The notes beneath the pieces were generated by a model. That model was not told where the DNA came from and did not search any database. It saw only the letters and a program-made list of their open reading frames with translations. From NCBI GenBank assembly GCA_004796365.1, contig QZLE01000074.1, positions 12,028 through 76,027 on the forward strand: 64,000 nt of DNA. Direction: 5' to 3'. Origin of the DNA: Gammaproteobacteria bacterium. GTDB taxonomy: Bacteria; Pseudomonadota; Gammaproteobacteria; QZLD01. Positions 7,926-53,819 of the stretch are shown here, one piece after another (the stretch's first letter is position 1; every line of letters starts with the position of its first letter). The position numbers and the translations under genes are program-made.

Positions 7926-8005
7926 ATCTAGGTTCTCGCTTCTGACGATTTTCGGAAAAATTTAATAAAAAATTAACACATTTATGCAGCAAATATCATT
8001 GAAAT

Positions 8006-11000
8006 ATGCTCAAGATGAGCTTTAATTATAAGAGAAAGTTTCCAATAAATTTAACAATTTATACATTGGAATTTTTTTTGCTTCCCCGGCAGAAAAAACG
8101 AGACATTTCAATTTCAGAAGTATATCATTACTTTGTTGTTTGCTTGCAATTATATACGGAGATTTTAGTGCAAGTTAAGTCCAATCTGGATACTGTTATA
8201 TCTATAGATGCCACGAAGTTGTCACGGGCAAATAGTCGAATTTCTGTTTTAGAAGCAGAAATCGAGTTGCTGTCTCAATTAGCTGCCTCCGACCATATCG
8301 ATCACACAATAACTAAACTATCTGAATTCATTAATAATAGATGGGGGTTTAATATATTTGGATTGCAGATTTGTGATAATGCCACGCAAAAATTAGTGTT
8401 CCATAAGCTGATAAAAGCAGATTCAATTGGTTCCAATTACTCTTCGTTAGATAATTTTGTACTACCTCTTGATTCTGCGAAGAGCATTTCAGTTGATGCA
8501 GCTGTCGACAAACGTTTTCAATATCACTCACTTGAGGATTTGAGTGAATCTGAATATGACTTTGATGCCAAAATCACTGCGAAACTTGGTTTAAAAAGCA
8601 TGTTGTACATACCAGTAATAGCTGGTGAAAATTCAATTGGTGTGATTAGGATTTCATCCAGTAATGGAAGAATAAGAGTTGTTCCAGAAACTGTTGATGA
8701 AATCATTTCTTTGGTTTCAAAGGTTTCAGCAATAGTTGCAAACAAATTGCAGGTATCGCAGATTGAACGGCAGAATCAAGTACAAAACAGAAACCTTAAA
8801 CTTGTCCATGACCTCAGCGCGATAACTGATTTATCCAGGATTTCCGAGCTACTAGTTCAGGAGATTCTGACCATAGATTCCTTTGATGCAATTATGGTTA
8901 ATACGCTTGACGCTGAAAAACGAAACTTTTGTTGCAATTGCGTCTATCTGCCATCTCACTTATCGCCAATGCGCACAGTTCTTGAAGGCTTCAAATATAA
9001 ATTTGATATTAATTCACTAGATAACAGCTGGAATAAAACGCATAAACCGGTAAGGATCGAAAGTAGTCAGTTTGACTTTTGTTCTGCATTTGTAACTGAG
9101 CGTTGTCAAAAGTGGGATATGCAGCATCTTGTTGTCCTACCGGTACTAGTCTCTGGCTTCGCAATTGGGGCAGTTTATATTTTCAATCAGGATAAATGCA
9201 TAAAAGACAGCAAGATACAAAATATTTCAAATATTCTGAAGCTTTTTTCCGGGGCAATTTATAATGCAGCTAGAATTGAAATAGTAAATGCTAAAGAAGA
9301 CGAACTGCTTAAGATCGAATTAGGAAAGAAAAAATTTCTGAAATTTGTAGAGAAAATAAATCATATTTCTGAACCCCGAAAAATATATCAAAATATCGCA
9401 GATGAATTTATCAGATGGTTTCCATTTAATATGGCATCTATACATATGGTGGAAGGGGAACAGCTGTTAACTAAAAATATAACCCTCGACGATTCTGTTG
9501 AAGCATCAGTGATTAATGCTTTAAAAAAGGCTCATGAAGATATTAAATTACAAATGGTTCCTGGTGAGAGTGTACAGGTTTCGACTGTATTTAACGATTC
9601 AGTAACTCATATTCATGATGTGCAGCAAATAAAAGATCTACCAATGCCCGAAAAAGATGCATATTGCATACAATTTCTCACTGGGCTGCGCACAGTTGTT
9701 CATGTTCCAATAAGAATTGGGACCACTCCGGTTGGGGTATTGTCTTTATGGTCCTTTGTAGATACAGTCGATTTAACAAATGATGACATTAATCTCATCG
9801 AGCTTATTACATCTTTCTGCGGATCAACAATTAACAATGCGTTTTTGTTCAATACGGTCGAAGAGCAAAAGGATCAAATAGCATCTCAATATGATGAATT
9901 AAGTACAACCAGAGATCTTCTTGAAATAGCTCGTGATGATGCCGAAATGTCAGCTCAGGCAAAATCAGACTTTTTGGCAAATATGAGCCATGAAATTAGA
10001 ACACCAATGAATGCGATTTTAAATTTCGCTGAATTGGTGATGAAAACCAATCTTGCCCCCAAGCAGATTGACTATATTTCTAAAATTAAGAAGTCATCAG
10101 ATTCTCTGCTTGATATAATAAACGATATCCTTGACCTTTCTAAGATAGAAGCCAATAAATTTGAAATTAACGAATATGAGTTCGACATCATTGATGTATT
10201 AAATGATGTCAGTGATATATTTGTTGAGCGTTTTAAAACCAAAGGGTTGGGATTTTATGTTAATGGGGCAGCATTATTAAGAAATAGCTTTATTGGTGAC
10301 GCGCTCAGAATTAAACAAGTGTTAATAAATATAATAAACAATGCACTTAAGTTTACTCATGATGGTTATATTGAGCTAGGTGTAACTGCCAAAAATAAAT
10401 CTTCTTGCGACGAACTTCTTCTTGAATTTTATGTAAAAGATACAGGGATCGGCATTAGTTCAGAAAAGATAAACAGGCTATTTGATTCCTTTACACAAGC
10501 GGATTCCTCTATTACTCGTGAGTATGGTGGCACCGGTCTCGGTCTTACTATATCCAAGCAGTTGTGTACGATGATGGGAGGCGATATTGCTGTTGAGAGT
10601 ATTGTTGGCAAAGGTAGTATTTTCCACTTTGCCTTTAGTTTAAAGTCATCACCAACACCTAATCTAATCGACAAGCAAATTACTGCAGATATTTGTCATA
10701 AACGCGTTCTGCTAGTAAGCAATATGCCAGAGATGGCTGGTTCTTTCCTCGGTGTGCTTAGCCGTATTAACGCAAAAGCAGATTATATCGACTCAATTGA
10801 TGATCTTTCTGTATATGTTAAGAAAATGCAAACAGATAGTCGGGGTGTTGATCTGGTTATAATAGATGAAGACCTTTATACCCACGACAGTGTCGACCTG
10901 TTGGCAAAGCTTATCACAATTACCGGTGCCAAATGCATAGTTCTACAGTCAATAGAAAACCATGAAACCTATCTTTATTGCGATGCTATTGGAACCAAGC

Positions 11001-12178
11001 CATTAAATGACTGCTCATTGATTGAGTTAATAGCTTCAACGATGAGCGGTAAAAACAACATCAGTGATAAAAACACCACCACTACAATTACTTCTATTGA
11101 AAGAAAGTACTATTCTAGGTTATGCAATAATAACGTACTGCTTATTGATGACAATGAAATTAATCTACAAATTGCTCAGGAACTGCTTGAGCTGGTAGGC
11201 ATTAACGTGACTCCCGTTAATAGCGGTCTAAAAGCTATAAATGCTATAAATAAACATGAATTTGATCTAGTTATCACCGACGTACAAATGCCTCACATGG
11301 ATGGTTACAAGCTCACTTCAATTATCAAAGAAACTTATAAAGACCTTCCTGTAATAGCTTTAACAGCTCATGCAATGCATGGATATAAGGAGCAATGTAT
11401 GGCAGCAGGTATGAGTGATTATATTACCAAGCCTATAAATCAAGCTTCTTTATATCAATGCTTAATTAAATGGTTAAAGCCAAAAACCTTGCACAATGAA
11501 TCTGCTAATTCAGATCATAAGATAAGCAATATTGCACCTATTACACTCACTGCAGAACAGTTTTCACATATTGATCTTGTGTCTGACATTGATATCTATT
11601 CTGCACTGGAAGCCATTGGTGGTAGCAAAAAACTATTTGTTAAGATTTTGCGCACAATCACTATGCAATACAAAAATGCGCCAGCAATCGTAAGAAAAAG
11701 ACTTGCTGCAAATGATATTGATGGAGCTGTTAATTTAATTCACTCTCTTAAGGGGTTGGTAGGGTCAGTTGCTGCGCAAGAGCTTTATGATGCCTGTAAG
11801 CTTTTAGAGGCAGCTTTAGCAGACCATAAAACTCAATTCCGCCCTGACATATTTATTATAATTGATAAACTGGAAAGCGAATTTGAGCCTGTATTAAGCG
11901 ATATATCAGCAATTATCACTTATGCAATATTGTTAAGCAATTCTGATGTCGCTCCAAAAGAAAAAACACATGATTTTGACTTATTAAATAGTAAGAATCA
12001 CATTGAAACATTTAAAGATCTTTTGGATGAAAATAACTATAAATCATTGGAATATATCCCATTTATTAAGAAACACTTAACAAATGTTGGTGGTAAGGCA
12101 GCTATTACTGAGATTGAGTCCGCAATTGAAAACTTTGATTTCCCAAAAGCCCGCGATATTTTCTATAGTTATATATAA
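8006..12178 (+). CDS. Cytoplasmic multi-GAF hybrid sensor histidine kinase (coiled coil, GAF repeats, HisKA, HATPase, intervening receiver-like region, REC, Hpt, extra C-terminal tail)
   Basis: H-box [14 protein letters not shown]; G-boxes DTGIGIS and [13 protein letters not shown]; [18 protein letters not shown]...ITKP; Hpt [10 protein letters not shown]. No TM helices are seen. The true start is probably GTG 8168, which has GGAG 6 nt upstream. The paralog at 60591 aligns only from that point ([10 protein letters not shown] vs [10 protein letters not shown]). Confidence 0.9.
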
Positions 12179-12213: not shown

Positions 12214-12242
12214 TTGACAAACAGCTGTTTGCATCGTAAATT
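12214..12242 (+). promoter_or_regulatory. Sigma70-like promoter for the RDD-to-DUF58 operon
   Basis: TTGACA (12214..12219), a 17-nt spacer, then TAAATT (12237..12242). The spacer opens with the perfect 10-bp palindrome AACAGCTGTT (12220..12229). A GGGGG Shine-Dalgarno at 12251..12255 precedes GTG 12260. Confidence 0.45.
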
Positions 12243-12259: not shown

Positions 12260-12979
12260 GTGCTAGATACTCAAATAAAAATAGAGACGCCTGAAGGAAT
12301 TGAGCTTGGAGTAAGGATTGCGGGACCAGTGGTCAGAGGTTTTGCATATTTTATAGACTCTTTAATCAAGTTTGTTGTCTACTTTGCTTTATATTTTTTG
12401 GTTTTGTTTTCTTATGCTGGGCTAAGCGAATCTTCGTTTAATGTTCTCATAGGTATTCTTCTTATTTTGATGTTCTTTTTTGAGTGGTTTTATTCTGTTT
12501 TTTTTGAAATATTTAAAGATGGAGCTACTCCTGGGAAAAAAGTTATGGGGATTAAGGTTATTTGTGATAGCGGGGTTCCAATTACCTGGAGTTCATCACT
12601 AACCAGAAATATTGTTAGAGTGGTTGATATGCTCCCATTTTTTTATTTTTTCCCATCTTGCGGAGTGGGATTGCTCTTTATCTTATTTGGTAAAAATTTT
12701 AAACGCATTGGTGATATTGCTGCTGGGACTATTGTTGTCCATGCTAAAGAAAAGAACAATACCCATAGAATCGCTGAAGCTGAACCGTTGGTCCCAAGTC
12801 AACCCTTAAGCCTTGATGATAAAAAAGCCATAGTAATGTTTTCTGAGAGGTTGAATTCAATGTCTGAGCCAAGAGCTTACGAATTAGCTGATATATTAGA
12901 AATACTAACTGATGAACTCGGTCCTAAAGGTGTTGAGAAACTTAATCGTTATGCAAATTGGGTGGTAGGTGAAAAATGA
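12260..12979 (+). CDS. RDD-family integral membrane protein
   Basis: 239 aa. The N-terminus has AGPVVRGFAYFIDSLIK (the Arg..Asp of the RDD signature), followed by 3 to 4 hydrophobic helices and GDIAAGTIVV. Starts with GTG. Confidence 0.7.
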   Translation: MLDTQIKIETPEGIELGVRIAGPVVRGFAYFIDSLIKFVVYFALYFLVLFSYAGLSESSFNVLIGILLILMFFFEWFYSVFFEIFKDGATPGKKVMGIKVICDSGVPITWSSSLTRNIVRVVDMLPFFYFFPSCGVGLLFILFGKNFKRIGDIAAGTIVVHAKEKNNTHRIAEAEPLVPSQPLSLDDKKAIVMFSERLNSMSEPRAYELADILEILTDELGPKGVEKLNRYANWVVGEK

Positions 12980-13965
12980 AGCAGCAGACATTTGAACGCC
13001 TCCATGCCAAGTTTTGGGATGATTTTGAATCCATGCTTGAGGTATACAATAAAAAGGGAACCTCAAGCGGTTATTCTGCAAATTATTCGCATGAGCGCTT
13101 TATAAACGATTACCGGCTTATCTGCCAACACTATTCTTTATCTAAAAGCAGAGCGTATAGCAATAATTTAATTGGACGACTTCACTCTTTGGCTATGGGA
13201 GGACATCAAGTCCTATATAAACGAGATAATATACCACTTGGAAGGATTCTTCACTTTATTACTACTGAATTTCCTTGTGCTGTTAGACGTGAATATAAAC
13301 TTATGATCGTCTCGATTCTGCTGTTTTTTGGTGTTATGTTTGCTTCTGCAAGTTTGATAGTAGCAAAGCCCGATTTGGCATATTCAGTTGTCAGTGAATA
13401 CCAATTAAAAGGTATTGAAAATATGTATGACCCTGGGGAGAGGAAAAATATTGGCCGCAAAAGGGACTCAGATAGTGATATCCTGATGTTTGGTTTTTAT
13501 ATCAGAAACAACACAGGGATCGGCCTGGGAACATTCGCCAGCGGTATTATCTTTGGTGTAGGTACAATATTTATTCTGCTCTTCAATGCAATTTTTATCG
13601 GAGTAATCAGCGGACATATAATTAATGTTGGTTTCATTGATACGTTCTTTCCGTTTGTAGTTGGGCATGGTTCATTTGAACTTACTGCGATAGCGCTTGC
13701 CGGCTGCGCCGGCCTTAAGCTTGGAATGGCGTTACTTAATCCTGGAAGATACTCACGGTTTGATTCAGTCAAAAGATCTGCACTACACATTATGCCCATA
13801 GTAATAGGAATGATGGGAATGTTCATTATTGCTGCATTTATTGAGGCATTTTGGTCATCGTCTACATTTTTATCAAATGAAACTAAATATATTACCGGTG
13901 CAATACTTTGGACTTTTGTAATTATCTATTTTTTATTTTCAGGACGCGGGCGTGCACATAGATAA
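12976..13965 (+). CDS. SpoIIM-like (DUF95) polytopic membrane protein
   Basis: 329 aa. It has FYIRNNTGIGLGTFASGIIFGVGTIFILLFNAIFIGV and GHGSFELTAIALAGCAG, typical of the stage II sporulation M-like family. ATGA overlap with the upstream stop. Confidence 0.65.
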   Translation: MKQQTFERLHAKFWDDFESMLEVYNKKGTSSGYSANYSHERFINDYRLICQHYSLSKSRAYSNNLIGRLHSLAMGGHQVLYKRDNIPLGRILHFITTEFPCAVRREYKLMIVSILLFFGVMFASASLIVAKPDLAYSVVSEYQLKGIENMYDPGERKNIGRKRDSDSDILMFGFYIRNNTGIGLGTFASGIIFGVGTIFILLFNAIFIGVISGHIINVGFIDTFFPFVVGHGSFELTAIALAGCAGLKLGMALLNPGRYSRFDSVKRSALHIMPIVIGMMGMFIIAAFIEAFWSSSTFLSNETKYITGAILWTFVIIYFLFSGRGRAHR

Positions 13966-15712
13966 AATTCAGGCAAAAATAAGACCACGCTCTAACTGGG
14001 AGGCTGTTGACCTAGGTTTTTTAATGGCTAATAAGTGGAAGGCCAATATATATATGGTTTGGTTTCTCGTGACTATGCCTTTTTTTGTACTTTCTAATCT
14101 CTTGTTCCACGATGATATGACTTGGTTTATATTAGTTTTTTGGTTATTTATCCCAATATATGACCGGTTTGTACTGTTGGTGGTAAGTCGCAGACTATTT
14201 GATGAAAAGATTACTGTAGTAGAGGTGATACGCGTTGCCCCGCGCCTAATCTTTAAACACTTTTTCAAGCACTTGACCTATTATCGGTTTGATCCAGCAA
14301 GAAGCTTTAACCTACCGGTTTGGTTTTTAGAAAATCTTAGTGGTTCAAAAAGATCTGCTAGAGCAAGAATACTAAAAATTTCGGCCTCAGGAACTGCTTC
14401 AACATTAACTACAGCATGCTCAATGCTGGTGTTTTTTTTCTATCTTTCAATTCTGGCGTCACTTATATCGTTTATTCCCGGTTTAAATCTTTTTGGAGAT
14501 ATATTCCGCGATTCATTTGAAAATATAATCGCAATGTATCAGTCGCAGAACTGGTATGTTCAACTATTTGCAAATTCCTTATTCTATTTGGCCATATCAT
14601 TAGTAGAGCCATTTTATGTATGTGCCGGATTCGCACTTTATCTCAATAGAAGAACAGAACTAGAATCTTGGGACATTGAGCTATCCTTTAAAAATCTGCG
14701 CAACAAACTGGAAGAAAAGGATAGAAAATTTGAAATGGCAGGCGTTGCAACTAAGGCATCTAAACTAGCTGTTATTGCTGTAACTACCTGTATTCTGGCA
14801 CTCACTCCAGTAGTGTTTCCATCTGAATCATATGCTAATACTCAAGGTGTAGAAAACCCTACTAAAAGGGGAGGTACTTGTAAGGCTCCTAGAGAGCCGG
14901 TTTTTGAGAATGGTGTTAAACGGTCTTTTGAATGCATTGACTGGGAAGAAAAGCTTAATGAACCAGCAAATAATCGTGCAGAAAAGGAGTTACGAGCACT
15001 GCTTTCTGAAGAAAAATATAACAAGTGCTCCGTTGTCACCAAATTTGAACGTATACCTGAAAAAGTTGATACTCCTGATACCAAAAGCATATGGGAGAAG
15101 ATATGGGAATATTTCTTTGGAGATGATGACAAAGAGCGAGAAAAAGATGATGATTCCGATGAGATATCATTTGCAAATATATTCGAAATAATTATTTGGA
15201 CGCTAGTAGGAATCGGCATAGTTTATCTGCTGGTACAGCTCTATAAATACCGAGAAGGGCTTATTGAATTTTTCAGCCCCTCATCAGAAAGTAACGAAGA
15301 TATTCCTACCGAAATCTTTGGGCTGGATATTACTCCAGAATCCATACCAGACCAGCTTTCAGACGAAGTGCTCAAATTATGGGAGGAGGGTGAACACCTC
15401 AAAGCACTGGCATTGCTTTACAGGGGTTACCTTTCCAAAATGATACATACTTTTAATGCCGAGATAAGAGCAAGTTATACAGAAAATGATTGCTTGAACT
15501 CTGCACGAAAAGTCGTTACTAGAAATAGTCATTTGATAAGTTTATTTTCCCAGATAACAGACCTTTGGCTTAAGGCAGCTTATGCTCATAGGCTCCCTTC
15601 AGATGCATCTGTCATCGATTGCTGCCGCTCCTGGCGCTTGAGCTTTGAGGTCGGATCTGCCACTGAAGCTTCTTTTGCTGCTAGAAAAAGTAAGGAATCG
15701 ACAGATGCTTAA
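13952..15712 (+). CDS. Multi-pass membrane protein with a C-terminal DUF4129-like domain
   Basis: 586 aa. It has several N-terminal TM helices, then a Cys-containing acidic linker, then one more TM helper helix (IIIWTLVGIGIVYLLV). The C-terminal region ALALLYRGYLSKMIHTFNAEIRASYTENDC resembles DUF4129. The GTG start lies 14 nt inside the upstream ORF. Confidence 0.6.
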   Translation: MHIDKIQAKIRPRSNWEAVDLGFLMANKWKANIYMVWFLVTMPFFVLSNLLFHDDMTWFILVFWLFIPIYDRFVLLVVSRRLFDEKITVVEVIRVAPRLIFKHFFKHLTYYRFDPARSFNLPVWFLENLSGSKRSARARILKISASGTASTLTTACSMLVFFFYLSILASLISFIPGLNLFGDIFRDSFENIIAMYQSQNWYVQLFANSLFYLAISLVEPFYVCAGFALYLNRRTELESWDIELSFKNLRNKLEEKDRKFEMAGVATKASKLAVIAVTTCILALTPVVFPSESYANTQGVENPTKRGGTCKAPREPVFENGVKRSFECIDWEEKLNEPANNRAEKELRALLSEEKYNKCSVVTKFERIPEKVDTPDTKSIWEKIWEYFFGDDDKEREKDDDSDEISFANIFEIIIWTLVGIGIVYLLVQLYKYREGLIEFFSPSSESNEDIPTEIFGLDITPESIPDQLSDEVLKLWEEGEHLKALALLYRGYLSKMIHTFNAEIRASYTENDCLNSARKVVTRNSHLISLFSQITDLWLKAAYAHRLPSDASVIDCCRSWRLSFEVGSATEASFAARKSKESTDA

Positions 15713-16847
15713 ATTTTCAAGTGCGCGACTTATCGCTTTGGTGGTTATCCTTCTGGGAATTTTTCTGGTGTACTACAGTTTGAAAGATTATGAACTGATT
15801 GAGCGCGAGCGCTATAACGGATTCAGTTCTCAGGTAGTTCAGGGTAGATATTCAATTTTGCAGGAATTTTTAAAACGGATGGATATGGATGTTAAACGCC
15901 ATATCCGAGTGACATCAATTAAGGAATTAAGAAGCAATCAGGGAACGATGTTTCTTGGAATATTGCCAGACAGGTATAGTGAAGACGAAATTAAAGCCAT
16001 TCTTGGTTGGGTAGAGCAGGGTGGGCACCTTATTATTAATGCCGAAATTGCAAAATATTATTATGATGAAGTAGTTGAAAATTCGATACTGAATAATTTT
16101 AATATTTCGCGTGAGTATATTCCTTACGATGACAGAGTTGAGTCTGATGCTACAGCAATCAAACTTTCCGAAAAAACCTATGAGCTAGCATATGGTTATG
16201 AGCACACTGCTATCTCTATTTCGGAACCAGATCGTCTTATAAGTAGTGATGATAATTCTCAGAAGTTTATCCAGATTAAGTATAAAAAAGGACTGGTTTC
16301 AGTATTTAGCTCGACTGAGTTTTTAATGAATAATCAAATTATTGAAAATGATCATGCTCTTTTTTCCTACGATCTTTTTAGCCTAAATAATCCGGAAGGA
16401 AAAGTATGGTTAGTAGAACAACCCAGAATGCCCCATTTTACTGACCTTATTTGGGATTACTATCGAAACGTGGTTATTTCTTGCGGCGTATTGCTGTTGT
16501 TCTTTCTTATCTGGTTAGGGCGCCGTTTTGGGGCTATCATCACTGATGAGAATACCTACAGTCGCAGTTTAATTGAGCAAATTCATGCTGCAGGAATTTT
16601 TGCAGTTAAAACTAAAAGTCTTAATAGCCTTGTCGTTAGAGTAAGAAAAGACCTTAGAAGAAAAATTGAACGCAAGCATCCGTCAATCGCCTTTGACTCC
16701 GATTGTGACGTTATTGGAGAGATTGCGAAAATTACACATCTTGATAGAAAAGATGTTGAATTTGCATTTAATTATAAGATGGCCCATCAACAAATTGAAT
16801 TTTTAAATATTATCAAAGCATTACATAAAATAGGTAAATTAATATGA
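15705..16847 (+). CDS. DUF4350-like membrane-anchored protein
   Basis: The track ORF starts at 15645. ATG 15705 (MLKFSSARLIALVVILLGIFLVYY) overlaps the upstream stop as ATGCTTAA and begins directly with a TM anchor. It also has a GGHLIINAE segment and a second TM helix (VVISCGVLLLFFLIWLG). Confidence 0.55.
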   Translation: MLKFSSARLIALVVILLGIFLVYYSLKDYELIERERYNGFSSQVVQGRYSILQEFLKRMDMDVKRHIRVTSIKELRSNQGTMFLGILPDRYSEDEIKAILGWVEQGGHLIINAEIAKYYYDEVVENSILNNFNISREYIPYDDRVESDATAIKLSEKTYELAYGYEHTAISISEPDRLISSDDNSQKFIQIKYKKGLVSVFSSTEFLMNNQIIENDHALFSYDLFSLNNPEGKVWLVEQPRMPHFTDLIWDYYRNVVISCGVLLLFFLIWLGRRFGAIITDENTYSRSLIEQIHAAGIFAVKTKSLNSLVVRVRKDLRRKIERKHPSIAFDSDCDVIGEIAKITHLDRKDVEFAFNYKMAHQQIEFLNIIKALHKIGKLI

Positions 16848-17938
16848 ACCCTGAAGATAACGCTAGTCCTGAGAATATGAAAGTTGAAGCCCTGGATAAT
16901 GAAGCTGGAATAATTAATCCGGATACATGTCATAGTGCGACCACGGTAGATGAAGAGAATCCAAATGAGTCCTCGGTGATTGATATTTCTGCAATTACTC
17001 AAAAAGCTGTTGCGATAAAAAACGAGATTCATAAAGTACTGGTTGGACAGGATGACGTCGTAGAACAGGTTTTGATAGCACTATTTGCTGCTGGCCACGT
17101 CTTAGTTGAAGGTGTTCCAGGACTTGGTAAGACTTTGCTGGTAAGAGCTTTGGCACAAACCTTTGATGGTAAACACGGAAGGATACAGTTTACTCCAGAC
17201 CTAATGCCTGCAGATGTTACCGGGCATGCAATTTATGATATGAAATCAGAGCAGTTTAAGATTCGAAAAGGGCCTGTATTTACAAATATTTTATTAGCAG
17301 ATGAGATAAATAGGGCTCCAGCAAAGACGCAAGCTGCGTTGCTAGAAGTTATGCAGGAGTTCCAGGTTACGATCGAAGGGAATAGCTTTTCTATGTCACG
17401 TCCATTTGTTGTGCTCGCAACGCAAAACCCCGTTGAACAGGAGGGAACCTACCCATTGCCGGAGGCACAGGTTGATAGATTCCTATTAAAAGTTCATATG
17501 TCATACCCGACCGATGAAGAGGAGCGTCAATTAGTTGCGAATGTCACTTCAAACAGTTTGGCAAGTACACTTGATGTAGATACGATTGAAAGTATCGCCA
17601 ATAAAGATGATATTCTTGAAATTCAAAAAGCAGTTGCCCAGGTTCTAGTGGACCAGCGAGCTGTAGAATATGCAGTAAACATTGTTCGAGCCACTCGTGA
17701 CTGGGGAGGTATCTATTTGGGTGCAGGACCAAGGGGGAGTATATCACTAATCAGGGCTGCCAAGTCATATGCAATGCTTAACGAACGTGACTTCGTAACC
17801 CCAGATGATATCAAACATGTAGCTCTTCCTGTTCTGCGTCACAGAATCACCCTTACCGCAGACTTTGAGATTGAAGGCTACACTGTTGATAACGTTCTTT
17901 CTTCAATTATTCAAAAAACTCCGGCACCGAGAGATTAA
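16844..17938 (+). CDS. MoxR-family AAA+ ATPase
   Basis: 364 aa with Walker A GVPGLGKTLL, Walker B ILLADEINRAPAKTQAALLEVMQE and the sensor region LATQNPVEQEGTYPLPEAQVDRF. It carries a roughly 60-aa acidic N-terminal extension. ATGA overlap with the upstream stop. Confidence 0.9.
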   Translation: MNPEDNASPENMKVEALDNEAGIINPDTCHSATTVDEENPNESSVIDISAITQKAVAIKNEIHKVLVGQDDVVEQVLIALFAAGHVLVEGVPGLGKTLLVRALAQTFDGKHGRIQFTPDLMPADVTGHAIYDMKSEQFKIRKGPVFTNILLADEINRAPAKTQAALLEVMQEFQVTIEGNSFSMSRPFVVLATQNPVEQEGTYPLPEAQVDRFLLKVHMSYPTDEEERQLVANVTSNSLASTLDVDTIESIANKDDILEIQKAVAQVLVDQRAVEYAVNIVRATRDWGGIYLGAGPRGSISLIRAAKSYAMLNERDFVTPDDIKHVALPVLRHRITLTADFEIEGYTVDNVLSSIIQKTPAPRD

Positions 17939-19242
17939 TGCGACCGACTAACTTTCTATTATATATATTGCTTGTTTGGGTCGGAATTGCCTTTGCCTCA
18001 TCGCATGAGCTTGTATCTACTGATGTTTGGCAATTTTTTGGTATCTGTCTGATTTTTTTATCATCCTTAAATATTATTTTTCTTTACCTTATAAAAAAGC
18101 CACAAATTTCAAGAAAGGTCAACACCACATTGCCGGTAGGTGTTAAAAGCATGGTGTATATGACCGTTAGCAATATGTCTAAAAGAACAATTAAAGTTAA
18201 ATTAACCGATCACGTTTCACAACAGCTTAACCCCCAAAACGATGTCATAATTGAAACTATAAAAGGAATGCATGGGTGTACTGCAAATTATTCAATTGAG
18301 CCTATCTCGCGTGGGAATTTGCAGTTTTACCGAGTTGAGATTCTCTTATCTACGCCTTTTTCCCTATTTAGTATTAAACGCATGATTGATCTGCCCCTCG
18401 CTGTTCGGGTTTATCCAAATTTCTCTGAAATCACTAAATATACAATACTCGCGACAGATAATAATATTAGCCAGATGGGCATCAAAAAACGACAAAGACG
18501 TGGTGAGGGAATGGAATTTCACCAGCTACGTGAATATCGCCAGGGGGATTCATTACGCCAACTTGACTGGAAAGCAACGTCAAGGCACAAAAAACTAATC
18601 TCAAAAGAATACCAGGATGAAAGGGATCAGCAGGTTGTTTTTCTGATAGATTGCAGTCAACGCATGCGCTCTAAAGATGGTGAAATGAGTCACTTTGATC
18701 ACGCTTTGAATTCGATATTACTATTATCTTATGTAGCCCTAAAACAGGGAGATGCTGTTGGGTTTCACGCTATAAATGGTATTGATAGATCTTTGTCACC
18801 ACGAAAGAGTATAACTTCAGTCAAAAGCATTCTTAATTCTGTGTATGATCTTGAACCGACCCTATCCCCGCCGGATTTTATAACTGCAGCAACGAATTAT
18901 CTTAAAACTGCAGAAAAAAGATCGCTTATTGTTATTGTCACTAATGCGTGTAGTGAGGATACTCAGGAGCTAATTACAGCGATAAACATGCTGCGCAAAA
19001 ACAATCTTGTTTTAATTGCCAACCTTAAAGAAGAGTGTCTTGAAATTACTTTTGAAAGCGATATAAATAGCTTTGACCAGGCACTTATTTACGCTTCTGC
19101 TCATGAATATATGTATTACCGAAATAAGGAATTCTCATCTATTAGAGCCACAGGCATACAGTTTATTGATGTAATTCCTCAAAAAATGCCAGCGGCAATT
19201 GTTAACAGGTATCTTGATATCAAAGCATCATCCCAGCTTTAG
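17938..19242 (+). CDS. DUF58-family protein (vWA-like fold) with two N-terminal TM helices
   Basis: 434 aa. It has EFHQLREYRQGDSLRQLDWKATSR, the hallmark DUF58 segment, followed by QVVFLIDCSQRM (MIDAS-like position). TAATG overlap with the moxR stop. Confidence 0.8.
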   Translation: MRPTNFLLYILLVWVGIAFASSHELVSTDVWQFFGICLIFLSSLNIIFLYLIKKPQISRKVNTTLPVGVKSMVYMTVSNMSKRTIKVKLTDHVSQQLNPQNDVIIETIKGMHGCTANYSIEPISRGNLQFYRVEILLSTPFSLFSIKRMIDLPLAVRVYPNFSEITKYTILATDNNISQMGIKKRQRRGEGMEFHQLREYRQGDSLRQLDWKATSRHKKLISKEYQDERDQQVVFLIDCSQRMRSKDGEMSHFDHALNSILLLSYVALKQGDAVGFHAINGIDRSLSPRKSITSVKSILNSVYDLEPTLSPPDFITAATNYLKTAEKRSLIVIVTNACSEDTQELITAINMLRKNNLVLIANLKEECLEITFESDINSFDQALIYASAHEYMYYRNKEFSSIRATGIQFIDVIPQKMPAAIVNRYLDIKASSQL

Positions 19243-19386: not shown

Positions 19387-22300
19387 ATGAATAAAGCTGG
19401 CTGCCCATCAATTTCTTTTAAACAGGCTCACATATATTTTGCCCTGATTTATACCATTTTATGCAGTTTTAATGCATCTGGCTTTGCATTGCATGATTCT
19501 CAGGAAAGATACATTATTTCTCCAGAGGCGAAATTATTTGAAGATGCTGATGGCATTAGTTTTCAAGCAGTGAGGAACTTACCAGCCACTTCTTTTAAAG
19601 CTAATGAGGTTGATTCTGTTAGCATTGATGATAGCAGCAAATTTTATTGGATTAAGTTTCAGATAAAGTATTACTCAAATTCACCCAGCCATTATCGAAA
19701 TTGGTTTATGGAAATAGCAGCACCATCGCTTGATATTCTGGATATTTATTTCATTGAGAATGGTAATACAACCTCACACCATTTGGGGGATGATAGGCCA
19801 TACAGGGTACGCCCAGTTCAGCATGGTAATTATATAATAGATTTTAGAACCCATTCAAAATACGAGACTATTGCCTATATTCGTGTAAAGAATAGCATCT
19901 CTACTAAATTGCCAATTCGAGTTTGGTCACATCAGGCTCTTTTTTCTGAATCACAAGTACTGCAATATCTGGCAGGAATTTGTTATGGCATTTTGTTGAT
20001 AATGGTTATATATAACTTGGCAACTGGAATAACCATAAAAGATAAATGCTATACATACCTGGCAATTTATATCTTGACAGCATTTGTCTGCCTAATATCC
20101 TATGATGGCTCTGCCAGGCAGTTTCTTTGGCCCAATAGCCTTTGGTGGGAGAGCAGGGCATTGTTTTTTTGGGAGTGTTTAGTAGTCTTTTGGGGTATAC
20201 AGTTTTCAAGAAACTTTATAGATTTAGAAAACAACTATCCAATGCTTGTTAAATCTCTATATTCAATCCAGTTTTCTGCCGTACTGTGTGCAATAGTCTC
20301 AATAATAATCCCGATGAATATGTTCAGTATTTTTATGGTCTTTGCATATTCAATAATCACATTTTTATTTATGATACCGGTCGCTAAGCATGCCCATAAG
20401 TCAGAAAAGCTGTTCTTCATTTTGGCTTGGTTGCCTTTATATGTTGTCACTATAGTTTTGATAGCCGGGAAAATTGAGCTTTTCGATTTCAATATTAATT
20501 CCATCAATAAAAGATATTTGTATTACCCACTTCTGACTGCACAGTGCTTGCTTTTGTCATTAGCTTTAACCCGCAGATACAATGCAATAAAAAATAGCAA
20601 AGAAAAAGCAGAGCAATACGCTCTTGGCTCTCTACAAAGGTATAAGGATTTATTTACTAACTCAACCGCCGGTATGTTTGAGATTAGCTATAACGGTAAG
20701 GTGTTATATGTAAACCCACAAATCCTGCAAATCCTTGGCTATGACTCAGAACAAGAACTGTTGAAAAATGATAACGCACTTGATACCAGTCTATTTGTTA
20801 ATGCTGCGGATAGAAAGCGTTACTTAAGGCTCCTATTAAAAAACGGACGTGTAACAAATTTTGAATTTCAATTTAAGAGAAAAAATGGAGAAATTGCCTG
20901 GGGGCTTGTTTCCAGTTGCCTGGTAACGGATTCAGATTCTACTGAATATGTGGTCAGTAAACCAAATATAGAAGGATCAATAGTTGATATTACTGCATCC
21001 AAGGAAAAAGAGAGCATTGAAAAGAGGCTTATTGAAGCGGAAACATCAGCTAACGTAAAATCTCAGTTACTTGCAAGCAGCAGTCATGAACTGCGCACCC
21101 CAATGAATGCGATAATTGGCTTTACGTCATTATTGCAAAAAACTGAACTAGATGAGAAGCAATTCAATTATTCTGAAAAAGTAAGGATTGCTGCGAAAGG
21201 GTTGTTAAGGCTGATTAATGACATCCTTGATAACTCTAAACTAGAAGCTGGTGAGATGGAAATTGAATCCGTCAACTTTAATCTAGATAAACTACTAAAT
21301 GAAGTAGTTGATATGTTTGCAGAGCCATTCAATGAGAAAGGGATAGAGTTGATACTCTTGAAGAAACCCGATGTACCTGTCGATTTAGTTGGTGACCCAC
21401 TGCGCATAAATCAGATCTTGATAAATCTAATCAACAATGCAATGAAGTTCACATCTGAAGGATATGTCGCGGTCACTATTGAGCATATTCCAGGTCATGA
21501 TGATGGTATTGATCTTTATTTTACAGTAAGTGATACAGGCGCCGGAATCGTTCCTGAAAGATGCGAAAGAATCTTTGATCCATACCAGCAGGCAAATTCA
21601 TCTGTGGCAAAGCTATTTGGCGGAACAGGGTTAGGCCTTAGCGTCTGTAAAAATCTGATTGAAAAAATGGGTGGGCAAATAAACGTTAAAAGCGCTGTAG
21701 GTCAAGGTTCAGAATTTATGTTTAGTATGCACCTTGGTATACAGCAGTTTGTAGGTAATGAAATTGAAACTTACGAGGAATTAGCTGGTAAAACCGCTTT
21801 TATTATTGATAGTAACAAGCTAGCCGTTGAGCAGCTTAAGGATGAGTTATCAAAATTTAAAATTAACTCAGTTTCTGCATTCAGTGGCGAAATGGCCCTA
21901 CAAAGGTTGATATCTCTTGGTGAAGCAGATCAATATGATTTTATTATTATTGAAAGAAATCTTGTCGATGCCCCAGGAATAAATATTATTAAAGAACTAA
22001 AGACTGACTCATCAACATCTAAGATACCGATTGCGCTTACATCCAGAACTGGATTTAATGATCTTTCAGAAAGGGATCGTAATTCGGGAATTAATGAACT
22101 CCTGGTCAAACCAATCAAAAGTAATAACTTAATTAAGACTTTAATAAGTATTTTCAATTTAGACTATGTTCCGCCAGTACAAGATGAAAATGAACATAAT
22201 GAATTAATTGGACTATTCAAAGATAAAAGAATACTGCTTGTTGAAGACAACGAGCTTAATCAAGAATTATTTACCGAGTTATTAGCTGGATCTGGTGCCA

Positions 22301-23016
22301 TTATCGAAATTGCAAAGACTGGGGCAGCAGCTATCGAGACAATCAACAAATCCGTATTTGATATTATTATGATGGATATTCAAATGCCAATATTAAACGG
22401 GATTGAAGCAACTAAAATTATAAGGAGAGAGCACAAAGAATTCGCTGATATCCCGATCATAGCCCTCACAGCAAATGTTTTGGAGTGTAATATTAAAGAG
22501 TATAGTGAGGCAGGTATGGACGGATTTATACCCAAGCCAATTGATTTTGCAGATCTTATATCGTCCCTAAAACAGTGGCTAAACATAGATAATAACGCCT
22601 TAATCTCTGAAACCAATAAAGAATCTGATGCTGTGTTAACTTGCCAATTACAGCAATCAGATACTATTGATCTTGCATCTGGATTAAAAAAGCTTGGAGG
22701 GAATAAAAAGCTGTATTATAAAATCCTGAATGACTTTGTAGATACATATAGACGTGAGAAAGAATCACTGTTTATCCTATTAAATGACAAGGACACTGAA
22801 ACTTTAAGTAGAAAGCTACATTCAATTAAAGGTATTAGCCTAAATTTAGGCCTTGATAATTTAGGTGAGATAGCTAGATCCGCTGAGCTGATAGTAAAAG
22901 ATGCTGGGTTAGATAAACAGAATGATTTTGAAAAAGCGCAAAGCCTCATTGAAAACTTCTATCAATTGCTTGAAGATGTTGCAGCTGAGCTAGATAAACT
23001 CCACATACTAAAATAG
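19387..23016 (+). CDS. 7TMR-DISM-type hybrid sensor histidine kinase (periplasmic DISMED2-like domain, 7 TM, PAS, HisKA, HATPase, receiver-like domain, REC, Hpt)
   Basis: 1209 aa. An N-terminal signal/TM is followed by a roughly 170-aa extracytoplasmic domain and then seven hydrophobic helices (aa ~195-400). PAS segment FTNSTAGMFEISYNGKVLYVNPQ; H-box SSSHELRTPMNAI; G-box [13 protein letters not shown]; REC DIIMMDIQMPILNG; Hpt LHSIKGISLNLG. Confidence 0.88.
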   Translation: MNKAGCPSISFKQAHIYFALIYTILCSFNASGFALHDSQERYIISPEAKLFEDADGISFQAVRNLPATSFKANEVDSVSIDDSSKFYWIKFQIKYYSNSPSHYRNWFMEIAAPSLDILDIYFIENGNTTSHHLGDDRPYRVRPVQHGNYIIDFRTHSKYETIAYIRVKNSISTKLPIRVWSHQALFSESQVLQYLAGICYGILLIMVIYNLATGITIKDKCYTYLAIYILTAFVCLISYDGSARQFLWPNSLWWESRALFFWECLVVFWGIQFSRNFIDLENNYPMLVKSLYSIQFSAVLCAIVSIIIPMNMFSIFMVFAYSIITFLFMIPVAKHAHKSEKLFFILAWLPLYVVTIVLIAGKIELFDFNINSINKRYLYYPLLTAQCLLLSLALTRRYNAIKNSKEKAEQYALGSLQRYKDLFTNSTAGMFEISYNGKVLYVNPQILQILGYDSEQELLKNDNALDTSLFVNAADRKRYLRLLLKNGRVTNFEFQFKRKNGEIAWGLVSSCLVTDSDSTEYVVSKPNIEGSIVDITASKEKESIEKRLIEAETSANVKSQLLASSSHELRTPMNAIIGFTSLLQKTELDEKQFNYSEKVRIAAKGLLRLINDILDNSKLEAGEMEIESVNFNLDKLLNEVVDMFAEPFNEKGIELILLKKPDVPVDLVGDPLRINQILINLINNAMKFTSEGYVAVTIEHIPGHDDGIDLYFTVSDTGAGIVPERCERIFDPYQQANSSVAKLFGGTGLGLSVCKNLIEKMGGQINVKSAVGQGSEFMFSMHLGIQQFVGNEIETYEELAGKTAFIIDSNKLAVEQLKDELSKFKINSVSAFSGEMALQRLISLGEADQYDFIIIERNLVDAPGINIIKELKTDSSTSKIPIALTSRTGFNDLSERDRNSGINELLVKPIKSNNLIKTLISIFNLDYVPPVQDENEHNELIGLFKDKRILLVEDNELNQELFTELLAGSGAIIEIAKTGAAAIETINKSVFDIIMMDIQMPILNGIEATKIIRREHKEFADIPIIALTANVLECNIKEYSEAGMDGFIPKPIDFADLISSLKQWLNIDNNALISETNKESDAVLTCQLQQSDTIDLASGLKKLGGNKKLYYKILNDFVDTYRREKESLFILLNDKDTETLSRKLHSIKGISLNLGLDNLGEIARSAELIVKDAGLDKQNDFEKAQSLIENFYQLLEDVAAELDKLHILK

Positions 23017-32847: not shown

Positions 32848-32849
32848 AG

Positions 32850-51521: not shown

Positions 51522-51533
51522 ACTAAGTAATAT

Positions 51534-51563
51534 AATCCGGGTGGCATTAACGCCTCCCGGATT
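51534..51563 (+). promoter_or_regulatory. Intercistronic hairpin between pstS and pstC
   Basis: AATCCGGG (51534..51541) pairs with CCCGGATT (51556..51563) around a 14-nt loop. It starts 13 nt after the pstS stop and has no U-tract. Confidence 0.5.
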
Positions 51564-51573
51564 AAAGACATTT

Positions 51574-53817: not shown

Positions 53818-53819
53818 TT

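Follow-up and report, generated by a model that had tools for sequence, protein, structure and literature searches.

The described counterpart of the locus considered here is Arc2, an 'antagonism resistance cluster' defined in Pseudomonas aeruginosa (Ting et al., 2022, eLife). All six arc2B-G genes (PA4318-23) are required for survival of this bacterium under attack by the T6SS of Burkholderia thailandensis, where all were Tn-seq hits at 7-20x (ratios of 8.9, 16.1, 17.4, 6.9, 12.1 and 20.5 from PA4318 to PA4323), and a Tn7 construct is listed for expression of PA4323 in the dPA4323 strain (Ting et al., 2022). The arc2 genes are induced through the Gac/Rsm danger-sensing pathway and are otherwise expressed at low levels. 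The protection has some specificity for ColA, a pore-forming toxin against which it is partial (3-5x), and four arc2 genes are still above 3x in the colA comparison; since the phenotype against wild-type attackers exceeds this effect, ColA is not the sole insult countered by Arc2. The arc2 genes do not contribute to tolerance of H2O2, heat, osmotic or detergent stress, and their inactivation does not affect the killing of the competitor. These authors offer no mechanism for Arc2 (Ting et al., 2022), and none has been published.

Parts of this gene neighborhood had also been noted in silico (Makarova et al., 2015), and operons combining MoxR and vWA proteins with polytopic membrane partners were proposed to encode membrane-proximal unfolding machines (Zhang and Aravind, 2012). 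In mycobacteria the counterpart is Rv3691-95, the annotation of which shares five family names with the locus considered here.

Correspondence of the locus to arc2B-G

The window that we analyzed, a stretch of 64,000 nucleotides from an uncultured gammaproteobacterium, carries six overlapping forward-strand ORFs (g1-g6; Table 1) that are, by sequence comparison, one-to-one counterparts of PA4318-23. This correspondence follows from the mapping of the published PA4320 and PA4323 deletion primers into Pseudomonas orthologs: the PAO1 primer dPA4320_F1 falls, with 0-1 mismatches, within the SpoIIM-like (g2) orthologs of Pseudomonas about 470 bp before the gene end, dPA4323_F1 falls within the MoxR (g5) orthologs of that genus about 520 bp before the gene end, and the peptides at the PA4320 deletion junction, LTDASV and GWRxLF, lie at the N- and C-termini of g3 orthologs. 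What was originally predicted to be an undescribed membrane module with no known function is thus Arc2, an already described system that is regulated by Gac/Rsm and has a defined defence phenotype. PA4322, the g5 counterpart, carries an AAA ATPase annotation. For PA4317 (arc2A), which is not a Tn-seq hit, no counterpart was identified in the window.

Table 1. Positions of the Arc2-like genes and associated features in the window
Feature	Coordinates	Strand	Remarks
Six-gene module g1-g6	12260-19242	+	ORFs confirmed
Candidate sigma-70 promoter, TTGACA-17-TAAATT	12214..12242	+	18 nt 5' of g1 start
g1, RDD-family membrane protein, 239 aa	12260..12979	+	counterpart of Arc2B/PA4318
g2, SpoIIM-like membrane protein, 329 aa	12976..13965	+	counterpart of Arc2C/PA4319
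g3, two-part membrane protein, 586 aa	13952..15712	+	counterpart of Arc2D/PA4320
DUF4129 domain of g3, aa 490-562	15419..15637	+	sub-threshold Pfam match
g4, DUF4350 protein, 380 aa	15705..16847	+	counterpart of Arc2E/PA4321
g5, MoxR-family AAA+ ATPase, 364 aa	16844..17938	+	counterpart of Arc2F/PA4322
g6, DUF58/vWA protein, 434 aa	17938..19242	+	counterpart of Arc2G/PA4323
Degenerate first MIDAS motif of g6, D238-C-S-Q-R-M243	18649..18666	+	alignment of 65 sequences

The gene junctions read exactly as originally predicted: ATGA at 12976/12979 (g1/g2) and at 16844/16847 (g4/g5), ATGCTTAA at 15705/15712 (g3/g4), TAATG at 17936-17940 (g5/g6), and a GTG at 13952 that sits 14 nt within g2 as the start of g3. 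Four junctions most often show a 4-nt overlap (41-54 of 64 orthologous loci), and the 14-nt g2/g3 overlap is found again in 34 of the 64; because the overlaps recur across these loci, the tight packing of the six genes is not due to chance. By these features of the sequence g1-g6 are a single operon, with predicted translational coupling. A Shine-Dalgarno-like AAGGGGG lies 5' of GTG 12260, the start of g1. The promoter proposed at 12214 is indeed the best promoter-like match of the region (10 of 12 positions), but such matches show no enrichment there over shuffled sequence (18 found versus 25 expected), and it is hence a candidate only.

That the six genes constitute a single unit is borne out: 58 of the 65 species-representative loci keep the colinear order, the overlaps are themselves conserved, no seventh gene accompanies the module in the neighborhoods of orthologous loci, and the six P. 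aeruginosa orthologs share one Tn-seq phenotype, with a double deletion no worse than a single one (Ting et al., 2022). In Alphaproteobacteria, Actinomycetota and Bacteroidota the same families co-occur in rearranged order. For the carriers in the latter two phyla, T6SS-delivered colicin-like toxins may not be the relevant threat. The module is present in both monoderm and diderm bacteria, and its flanking genes are kept only within a genus; Pseudomonas loci have MvaT/PurU/SbcB upstream and PilZ/pyruvate kinase downstream in common, and the module there occupies a fixed core-genome position, not a defence island. The window proteins are 21-62% identical to their Stutzerimonas and Sulfuriferula orthologs, and profiles built from the proteins of all three sources match them.

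Domain architectures of the six proteins

Profile HMM annotation upheld all six predicted family assignments, five with matches above the Pfam cut-offs and DUF4129 via homologs, and hydropathy agrees with the claim of TM helices in five of the six products. The RDD protein g1 (Pfam match 2.4e-23, above the curated cut-off) has a predicted topology of three TM helices and a 96-aa C-terminal tail, with R26, D33, E83, K93, R116, R149 and D152 invariant across phyla. In g2 (SpoIIM match 1.3e-34, likewise above the curated cut-off; 41-49% identity to orthologs) a soluble N-terminal domain of about 110 aa is predicted to precede 5-6 TM helices; PF28475 (DUF8413) is also present at the N-terminus of g2 orthologs, and N179, N204, H231, E235, R261 and E290 are invariant in the comparison across phyla.

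The predicted layout of g3 comprises a 4-TM N-terminal domain, for which we recovered no Pfam model and no PDB fold match, followed by TM5, an acidic loop of about 119 aa, TM6 and a cytoplasmic DUF4129 helical bundle. The DUF4129 match of this copy, covering profile positions 2-69 of 69, falls below the Pfam cut-off (E 0.011; 16.2 bits versus 24.8), yet the original family assignment holds because 76 of 84 full-length homologs match (best E 1.1e-10). In an AF2 model the stretch folds into a bundle of helices (block-mean pLDDT 89-98); a likeness of this bundle to HEPN was not significant in fold comparison. At nine loci the g3 gene is split in two ORFs, and Rhizobium has only its C-terminal half.

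For the DUF4350 protein g4 (Pfam match 1.2e-10, above the curated cut-off) a single TM anchor had been claimed; hydropathy instead gives two TM helices, aa 4-22 and 254-272. These are predicted to bracket a periplasmic alpha/beta domain of about 230 aa, the second being followed by a conserved 108-aa cytoplasmic helical tail (conserved residues R274, G276, R287, E291, H292 and W301). Foldseek with the AF2 model (mean pLDDT 81.4) returned 45 PDB matches at E<=1e-3, which are to the GATase1-like trimerisation domain of GH42/GH164 enzymes and to STM3548/STM1381.

The ATPase g5 (Pfam AAA_3 4.3e-64 and AAA_lid_2 2.8e-21; closest solved structure 2R44, 6.5e-84) has a Walker A motif GVPGLGKT (aa 90-97), a Walker B DEINR (aa 153-157) and TQNP at aa 193. 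A TM segment flagged by hydropathy was treated as a false positive since it overlaps the Walker A motif. The N-terminal extension, originally put at about 60 aa, is present and acidic (12 D/E versus 3 K/R in the first 60 aa) but shorter, at about 27-37 aa: approximately 37 residues precede the conserved core, where orthologs have a median of 10, i.e. about 27 extra. Close relatives are similar in length (357-367 aa), and on sequence comparison the extension is lineage-specific.

In g6 (DUF58 7e-23, with VWA_2 and VWA sub-threshold only; no solved relative found by sequence) a two-TM hairpin is predicted to precede a cytoplasmic DUF58 domain with a vWA-like core. The core motif of this copy, D-C-S-Q-R-M (within VVFLIDCSQRM), departs from the DxSxS MIDAS of canonical vWA domains. 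Across the 65 aligned sequences, i.e. the window copy and its orthologs, the consensus is D-C-G-R-R-M (D 63, G 60, R 57, R 56, M 63). As the core has this conserved Arg-Arg in place of DxSxS, partner recognition by g6 is probably not metal-mediated.

A proposed remodelled membrane platform and its alternatives

A membrane machine powered by MoxR/vWA, as originally put forward, is in general terms a reasonable idea, and we consider it likely that this Arc2-ortholog operon encodes an inner-membrane platform, remodelled from the cytoplasmic side by the MoxR/vWA pair, that counters inner-membrane damage. The RDD, SpoIIM-like, DUF4129 and DUF4350 proteins would form the platform, which on its periplasmic side would expose no more than one loop of the DUF4129 protein and the GATase1-like domain of the DUF4350 protein. 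The DUF58 vWA adaptor, which its TM hairpin would anchor in the membrane, might engage the conserved cytoplasmic elements (the g3 loop and DUF4129 bundle, the g4 tail, the SpoIIM N-terminal domain and the RDD tail) and couple them to a MoxR hexamer. ATP hydrolysis by the latter could then remodel the platform, or extract or disassemble a foreign membrane-inserted polypeptide, either of which would reduce pore formation or other inner-membrane damage. The SpoIIM-like Rv3694c and the RDD protein Rv3695 of M. tuberculosis are recovered together in one pull-down, a hint of physical association, and the membrane-proximal unfolding machines postulated by Zhang and Aravind (2012) are a mechanistic precedent.

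It is unlikely that the module is instead a maturation chaperone akin to NorQ/NorD, CbbQ/CbbO, CoxD/CoxE and RavA/ViaA, which would activate a specific enzyme or respiratory complex or equip it with a metal cofactor, the four membrane proteins being accessory or client. The insertion machine originally put forward, with its unknown client, is a model of this kind. The adjoining MoxR and DUF58/vWA genes fit such a role, for which precedent was cited in the case of Arc2 (Ting et al., 2022), and H231, E235 and E290 of the SpoIIM-like protein and H108, D216, H217 and H292 of the DUF4350 protein are possible metal ligands. However, no candidate client enzyme accompanies the module, whose flanks vary among genera; in NCBIfam its proteins match no equivalog of a known chaperone system; the g6 core lacks the DxSxS MIDAS; and the defect of the P. 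aeruginosa mutants is antagonism-specific, with no general-stress component.

Quite improbable, too, is a transporter or channel formed by the RDD and/or SpoIIM-like proteins and gated or assembled by MoxR/vWA, which would protect by restoring ion gradients. One RDD protein is reportedly a Na+(Li+,K+)/H+ antiporter. Such a function would suit protection against a depolarising toxin and the invariant charged or polar residues within or beside TM helices across phyla; moreover, the RDD and SpoIIM-like genes are a conserved pair of their own, sometimes without a nearby MoxR (Bernardetia, Arthrobacter). Against this, Pfam and NCBIfam find no transporter family, the P. aeruginosa mutants show no osmotic-stress phenotype, and the DUF4129/DUF4350 partners and the need for an AAA+ ATPase are left unexplained.

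We regard a novel secretion or surface-assembly system as very unlikely. Such a role was proposed, from GldG similarity, for an archaeal DUF4350-MoxR-vWA neighborhood (Makarova et al., 2015) that has this triad in common with the module, and the modelled periplasmic domain of g4 appears to be of the GldG/GH42-trimerisation type; but no outer-membrane component, substrate, S-layer or Ig-like protein occurs in or beside the module, the same set occurs in monoderms and diderms, and Arc2 inactivation leaves competitor killing intact. Least credible is a ternary MoxR-vWA system that acts against phages or in other conflicts (Kaur et al., 2020) and in which the pair relays a sensed threat to an effector as in the Esr pathway of Actinomycetales, where MoxR-vWA signalling is demonstrated: although Arc2 is itself a defence determinant, g5 has a bpMoxR Pfam match (6.3e-12), and PADLOC weakly matches the MoxR protein to DolB (1.1e-8), mad8 and IetA and the RDD protein to PD-T4-6 (E 3.3e-4), these matches are generic rather than system-level, AAA_3 scores far above bpMoxR (215 versus 45 bits), the module lacks any beta-propeller sensor, kinase, FHA or effector domain, and the Pseudomonas position lies outside defence islands.

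As to the favored reading, a MoxR/vWA-remodelled platform, the module also occurs in phyla without Gac/Rsm, and its ancestral role was therefore probably a general one in inner-membrane protection or maintenance, of which defence against ColA is one expression.

Organization and conservation of the operon

The six plus-strand genes g1-g6, encoding in order RDD, SpoIIM-like, DUF4129, DUF4350, MoxR AAA+ and DUF58 proteins, were recovered with exactly the boundaries of the original prediction, as were their junctions: an ATGA overlap, a GTG lying 14 nt within the preceding ORF, ATGCTTAA, a second ATGA and TAATG. The RDD, SpoIIM-like, DUF4350, MoxR and DUF58 assignments were borne out by Pfam matches above the curated thresholds for five of the six proteins. 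The remaining assignment, that of g3 to DUF4129, holds for the family but falls below the Pfam cut-off in the window copy (16.2 bits vs a cut-off of 24.8, with the whole profile spanned); we accept it because 76 of the 84 aligned full-length g3 relatives match DUF4129 (PF13559). NCBIfam has a specific equivalog for none of the six proteins. A mechanical ORF list puts the g4 start at TTG 15645 (400 aa); however, ATG 15705, which gives an 8-nt overlap with the g3 stop, appears to be the likelier start, since AAGGAA lies just upstream of it and it fits the tight g3/g4 junction of the orthologs (mostly a 4-nt overlap). Promoter-like matches in the region show no enrichment over shuffled sequence, no convincing intrinsic terminator was found within or directly 3' of the operon, and neither Rfam nor a tRNA scan gave a match anywhere in the window.

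Features of the operon and its immediate neighborhood in the window
Feature	Position	Strand	Domains or evidence
g1 (RDD)	12260-12979	+	Pfam RDD 2.4e-23
g2 (SpoIIM-like)	12976-13965	+	Pfam SpoIIM 1.3e-34
g3 (DUF4129)	13952-15712	+	DUF4129 aa 490-562, E 0.011, below Pfam cut-off
g4 (DUF4350)	15705-16847	+	Pfam DUF4350 1.2e-10
g5 (MoxR)	16844-17938	+	Pfam AAA_3 4.3e-64; AAA_lid_2 2.8e-21
g6 (DUF58)	17938-19242	+	Pfam DUF58 7e-23; VWA, VWA_2 below threshold
Promoter-like site TTGACA-17-TAAATT	12214-12242		best such match in region; candidate
Upstream hybrid sensor kinase	8006-12178	+	GAF-HisKA-HATPase-REC-HPt
Downstream hybrid sensor kinase	19387-23016	+	7TMR-DISMED2 + 7TMR-DISM_7TM + PAS + HisKA-HATPase + REC x2 + HPt

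These genes constitute a single operon, conserved and tightly coupled, whose orthologs are arc2B-G of Pseudomonas aeruginosa. A genome scan with one genome per species, queried with a three-sequence SpoIIM-like alignment (the 32-sequence DUF4350 alignment being too divergent for pattern design), recovered SpoIIM-like relatives at at least 559 loci, the best 80 of which are mostly from Gammaproteobacteria, with many from Pseudomonas, Stutzerimonas, Microbulbifer, Cellvibrio, Thiodiazotropha, Thiomargarita and Arenicella. Using local profile HMMs made from the window, Stutzerimonas and Sulfuriferula proteins, we found all six genes colinear and on one strand in 58 of the 65 loci with enough flanking sequence, many of them from Pseudomonas (E about 1e-43 to 1e-220), in agreement with the expectation that the six families co-occur in set order across genomes. 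The order is retained amid unrelated flanks in Stutzerimonas, Sulfuriferula and on a Catenovulum plasmid (L001, L002 and L090; L numbers denote loci fetched from other genomes for comparison). Four of the junctions most often show a 4-nt overlap (in 41-54 of 64 loci), and the unusual 14-nt g2/g3 overlap was found again in 34/64 loci. Flanking genes are kept only within Pseudomonas and Stutzerimonas (MvaT, PurU and SbcB upstream; PilZ and pyruvate kinase downstream), and no seventh module gene emerged from the compared flanks of the orthologous loci. Chance clustering of the six genes is ruled out by the synteny and overlap statistics.

Four orthologous loci show an interruption at the same DUF4350/MoxR junction. 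Two of these (L020 13786-18559 and L076 13918-18619) have three consecutive inserted ORFs of like size and arrangement, with the tyrosine recombinase domain Phage_integrase (Pfam) in two of the three ORFs of L020 and one of the three of L076. In the third, a KAP-family NTPase occupies the junction (L050 13942-15822), and in the fourth a dCache-HAMP-GGDEF gene lies there on the opposite strand (L049 13930-15720), the MoxR-DUF58 genes resuming ~2 kb later. Directly upstream of the module we observed one DUF805 membrane-protein gene in Sulfuriferula (L002 5770-6330) and two in Rhizobium phaseoli (L084 2560-3643); DUF805 may be an occasional accessory gene of the module.

Correspondence to the Arc2 cluster and genomic context

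The flanks of the Pseudomonas module pointed to PAO1 PA4317-23, named arc2A-G (antagonism resistance cluster 2) by Ting et al. 2022 (PMC8926400). The correspondence was established by mapping published primers and deletion-junction peptides onto Pseudomonas orthologs. Primer dPA4320_F1 (encoding FGFYIMN) lies with 0-1 mismatches within the SpoIIM-like gene of Pseudomonas loci, ~470 bp before its end, and dPA4323_F1 (encoding TQNPIE) matches within their MoxR gene, ~520 bp before its end. Of the PA4320 junction peptides, LTDASV is at the extreme N-terminus of g3 orthologs and GWRxLF 11 residues from their C-terminus; another source lists PA4322 as an AAA ATPase. The primer positions, junction peptides and this listing together indicate that PA4318-23 in all probability encode the RDD, SpoIIM-like, DUF4129, DUF4350, MoxR and DUF58 proteins corresponding to g1-g6.

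In P. aeruginosa, Arc2 has a very low basal expression, is induced by the Gac/Rsm pathway and is needed to survive T6SS attack by B. thailandensis; it does not contribute to withstanding H2O2, heat, osmotic or SDS/EDTA stress and has no offensive role (Ting et al. 2022, PMC8926400). The Tn-seq ratios for PA4318-PA4323 are 8.9, 16.1, 17.4, 6.9, 12.1 and 20.5, with PA4319, PA4320, PA4322 and PA4323 still >3x in the comparison involving colA (ColA being a pore-forming toxin), and PA4317 is not in the hit list (PMC8926400). Ting et al. 2022 noted the cluster in Pseudomonadaceae and Xanthomonadaceae, stated that none of its proteins was characterised and offered no mechanism (PMC8926400); we found no later work on Arc2 in the literature searched. 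After carbon starvation, 2 of the 15 non-dispersing biofilm isolates that were sequenced carried mutations in the DUF4350 gene PA4321; no follow-up was reported.

Arc2 and the window module thus agree in their six families, in gene order and in having all genes on one strand, with overlaps kept across gamma- and betaproteobacterial orthologs, many of them from Pseudomonas. However, their sequences are divergent: window g2 is 41-49% identical to its best orthologs, and g4 only 21-24% to the Stutzerimonas and Sulfuriferula copies, within a DUF4350 family of 1,606 representative clusters at E<=1e-3. The window MoxR also has a longer acidic N-terminus than its Arc2 counterpart. No window gene was recognized as corresponding to arc2A (PA4317). 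The contexts differ too, Arc2 lying between sbcB and a PilZ gene (sbcB is directly upstream of the RDD gene in L082) and the window module between two hybrid sensor kinases, of which the GAF kinase directly precedes the RDD gene. The original prediction had put the operon forward as an undescribed system with no known function. That claim does not hold, since a name, Arc2, already exists for the family of which the module is a divergent member; the description was largely accurate and the finding is real, but the best "undescribed" candidate had already been described.

Both large kinases bracketing the module are on the same strand as the operon. The layout of the downstream one is presumably that of the RetS/LadS type; RetS/LadS sensors gate the Gac/Rsm pathway, which controls arc2 in P. 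aeruginosa. The same kinase flanks recur in the relatives L091 and L092. Because the whole region is syntenic there, a possible regulatory link of the RetS/LadS-like kinase to the module is only a lead. In L092, a close relative, an alpha/beta-hydrolase gene (7369-8205) separates the RDD gene from the GAF kinase upstream of it.

Phyletic spread, sub-modules and protein architectures

More distant loci were traced by searching annotated plasmids and chromids (tblastn), the SpoIIM-like protein serving as query. Rhizobium phaseoli has all six families in a permuted order (DUF4129, DUF4350, MoxR, DUF58, SpoIIM, RDD). In the actinobacteria Nonomuraea and Nocardia an RDD/SpoIIM pair adjoins DUF4350-MoxR-DUF58, and in Prevotella (Bacteroidota) the pair is followed by two unannotated ORFs and then DUF4350-MoxR-DUF58. 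Bernardetia and Arthrobacter show the RDD/SpoIIM pair alone locally, and a haloarchaeon locus SpoIIM alone. Given these arrangements, the set appears to comprise two sub-modules that usually occur together, namely RDD + SpoIIM and DUF4129 + DUF4350 + MoxR + DUF58. In the M. chelonae/M. tuberculosis annotation, Rv3691 is DUF4350, Rv3692 MoxR, Rv3693 DUF58, Rv3694c SpoIIM and Rv3695 RDD; the counterparts of Rv3691-Rv3695 are adjacent and co-regulated in M. chelonae, and both Rv3694c and Rv3695 were recovered in one pull-down of the divisome-associated Rv0954. The mycobacterial Rv3689-Rv3695 cluster and the actinobacterial versions resemble the window in the adjacency of the DUF4350, MoxR, DUF58, SpoIIM-like and RDD genes. 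However, the actinobacterial versions have their RDD and SpoIIM genes in divergent orientation and DUF4350-MoxR-DUF58 as a run of its own, and no match to DUF4129 was found in them.

Based on hydropathy, the RDD protein has three TM helices and a 96-aa tail, and in the SpoIIM-like protein 5-6 TM helices come after a soluble N-terminal domain of ~110 aa. Residues invariant across phyla include R26, D33, E83, K93, R116, R149 and D152 in the former and N179, N204, H231, E235, R261 and E290 in the latter. We considered the SpoIIM of the sporulation DMP engulfment complex and rejected it: the SpoIIM domain is present, but no SpoIID/SpoIIP-type gene occurs in the operon or scanned flanks and the carriers are non-sporulating Proteobacteria.

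The g3 protein (941 homologs at E<=1e-3; a MAG labelled Gammaproteobacteria bacterium carries an identical sequence) begins with four TM helices and continues through TM5, an acidic loop of 119 aa and TM6 into a C-terminal stretch of 158 aa that holds the DUF4129 domain. In its AlphaFold2 model (mean pLDDT 81) the polytopic N-terminal domain is helical, a very long helix spans aa 201-284 and the C-terminal part folds into a helical bundle. No significant match to the model was obtained in the PDB, the best being HEPN four-helix bundles (E ~1-3) and CysZ (9% probability), and the polytopic domain (aa 1-260) has no match among solved folds. In nine loci, including those from Thiomargarita, Parabeggiatoa, Cocleimonas and Arenicella, g3 occurs as two ORFs, one for the polytopic N-terminal domain and one for TM + DUF4129 (L006, L011, L030, L039, L066, L068, L071, L075 and L080), and the 252-aa DUF4129 protein of R. 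phaseoli (L084 3647-4402) equals only its C-terminal half; hence, the 586-aa window protein is a fusion of two modules. In Nonomuraea a gene for a GPDPase_memb/DUF7847/DUF7544-type polytopic protein lies just upstream of DUF4350-MoxR-DUF58 (L085 13184-14662, minus strand), whose motifs GRAVFGG and YPFEAGVAGLLYADRRMRSEAFDL align in order with SRALFGE and EPFYVAAGFALYLNRRTxLEGWDIEL of the g3 N-terminal domain, the profile comparison being not significant (Prob 2%, E 0.025). Across the GPDPase_memb/DUF7847-like gene and the two Prevotella ORFs, the order of the motifs matches that in this domain, but hhalign gave a probability of <=2% (E 0.025-0.28), and there were no GPDPase_memb/DUF7847-type Pfam matches among the g3 homologs.

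The predicted TM anchor of g4 was found, at the N-terminus, but is joined by a second TM helix: by hydropathy, the anchor is followed by a 231-aa extracytoplasmic domain, this second helix and a 108-aa basic tail. In the g4 model (mean pLDDT 81) the periplasmic alpha/beta domain matches the GATase1-like trimerisation domain of GH42/GH164 glycosidases and the stand-alone proteins STM3548/STM1381 (45 hits, E<=1e-3). In GH42/GH164 enzymes the GATase1-like domain serves in oligomerisation, not catalysis. The fold match is in line with the HHpred result of Makarova. The juxtamembrane cytoplasmic tail is among the best-conserved parts of the family (R274, G276, R287, E291, H292, W301).

The MoxR protein is of the MoxR-proper type, with an AAA_3 core, Walker A/B, a lid domain and DUF58 as the next gene; its motifs GVPGLGKT, DEINR and TQNP are intact and its closest solved relative is 2R44 (6.5e-84). 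Its N-terminal extension is indeed acidic, but measures 37 aa before the core (16844-16954, aa 1-37), not the ~60 aa first proposed; the ortholog median is 10 aa, with up to 48 aa in some Pseudomonas loci, and close relatives total 357-367 aa. The DUF58 protein has a two-TM hairpin by hydropathy, the remainder being cytoplasmic, and no solved relative was found for it by sequence. Its first MIDAS motif, the metal-site motif (DxSxS) of canonical vWA domains, reads D-C-S-Q-R-M in the window and D-C-G-R-R-M in the family (G in 60/65 and R in 56-57/65 sequences). A vWA domain with a functional MIDAS was rejected on this motif and on the below-threshold VWA and VWA_2 matches. Taken together, the topology, folds and invariant residues of the six proteins place nearly all of the predicted conserved mass in the membrane or at its cytoplasmic face, within reach of a DUF58-tethered MoxR ring.

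Comparable systems and a proposed mechanism

An AAA+ ring with a vWA adaptor is also the arrangement of NorQ/NorD, CbbQ/CbbO, RavA/ViaA and BchI/BchD, which would favor reading the module as a classical cofactor-insertion chaperone. However, those pairs act on a specific enzyme client, soluble or in the membrane, that has been identified, and their MIDAS is typically functional, whereas the window module has no linked client enzyme and a degenerate motif. Snider and Houry reportedly described, in 2006, MoxR-proper (MRP) systems with DUF58, such as the Bacteroides Bat aerotolerance operon. Like the latter, the window has an AAA_3-type MoxR directly followed by a DUF58 protein; unlike it, it lacks the BatA/BatB vWA-TM and TPR BatC-E proteins and has RDD, SpoIIM, DUF4129 and DUF4350 instead. 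A Bat-type operon was rejected, the window operon stopping after DUF58 with a sensor kinase as the next gene 3'.

A secretion system has its parallel in the archaeal arCOG01314 (DUF4350)-MoxR-vWA neighborhood, a predicted secretion or membrane-remodelling system (Makarova, Galperin, Koonin 2015, PMC5898192), which shares with the window the triad of DUF4350, COG0714 MoxR and vWA. Its DUF4350 protein is predicted to have a membrane-anchored extracytoplasmic flavodoxin-like domain, and bacterial SpoIIM homologs were seen to adjoin vWA and COG0714 genes (PMC5898192). In contrast to the window, the archaeal version has S-layer/Ig-like partners and no experimental phenotype, and RDD and DUF4129 are not described there; it was rejected since these partners are absent from the window.

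Against these readings, and against an ion-transport module, stand the lack of a linked client enzyme, the degenerate MIDAS, the absence of a stress phenotype, the lack of genes for outer-membrane components or substrates and of sensor and effector domains, and PADLOC matches of a generic kind only; at least one of these points weakens each reading. The same points weaken a conflict-signalling or anti-phage system, the MoxR-vWA-beta-propeller ternary type being rejected for want of sensor/effector domains and with bpMoxR far below AAA_3, and the anti-phage reading on PADLOC matches that are only generic (MoxR to DolB, mad8 and IetA; RDD weakly to PD-T4-6).

We infer instead that the four membrane proteins would form an inner-membrane platform, which the DUF58 vWA adaptor, without a canonical MIDAS motif, would couple to a MoxR hexamer, whose ATP-driven remodelling would counter membrane-inserting toxins or the resulting damage. 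Among published mechanisms, this comes closest to the one suggested for MoxR-vWA operons with polytopic partners, that they act as membrane-proximal AAA+ unfolding machines (Zhang and Aravind 2012, PMC3495828). The MoxR-vWA-YebA/TgpA operon likewise strictly links MoxR and vWA to a polytopic inner-membrane protein, whereas the window has no transglutaminase or peptidase domain and has four membrane partners rather than one. TgpA-type proteins also end in a DUF4129 domain, and the P. aeruginosa PA2874/PA2875 context is presumably a second MoxR-DUF58-DUF4129 context. The families of PA2874/PA2875 are not named in the TgpA paper (PMC3507681).

The operon's defence phenotype against T6SS attack and ColA comes from P. 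aeruginosa only (PMC8926400). The ancestral function is more likely to have been general membrane protection or maintenance, because the module is present in lineages without Gac/Rsm. More speculatively, and with a low likelihood in our estimate, the Arc2-type set could be an ancient AAA+-driven machine shared across phyla (Proteobacteria, Actinomycetota including M. tuberculosis Rv3691-95, and Bacteroidota), made up of two separable sub-modules and a vWA adaptor with a conserved Arg-Arg replacing the MIDAS metal, which extracts or disassembles foreign pore-forming polypeptides or repairs local damage to the cytoplasmic membrane. If true, the set would approximate a generic, energy-dependent counterpart of the colicin immunity proteins.

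Arc2 is one of the few known "innate" bacterial defences against attack by other bacteria. To it the present analysis adds the six-protein core with its kept start/stop overlaps, a wider distribution with rearranged versions in Alphaproteobacteria, Actinomycetota (including Nocardia, of the Mycobacteriales) and Bacteroidota, the two evolutionary sub-modules, and a topology and fold map featuring the GATase1-like periplasmic domain, the non-canonical MIDAS and one polytopic domain without a known fold; with these, concrete hypotheses can be framed and tested for a locus that was named but opaque. Elsewhere in the window, other tightly packed same-strand runs are seen at 28067-34988 (+), encoding proteins of 705, 892 and 712 aa, and at 51508-55454 (+), encoding proteins of 769 and 544 aa.
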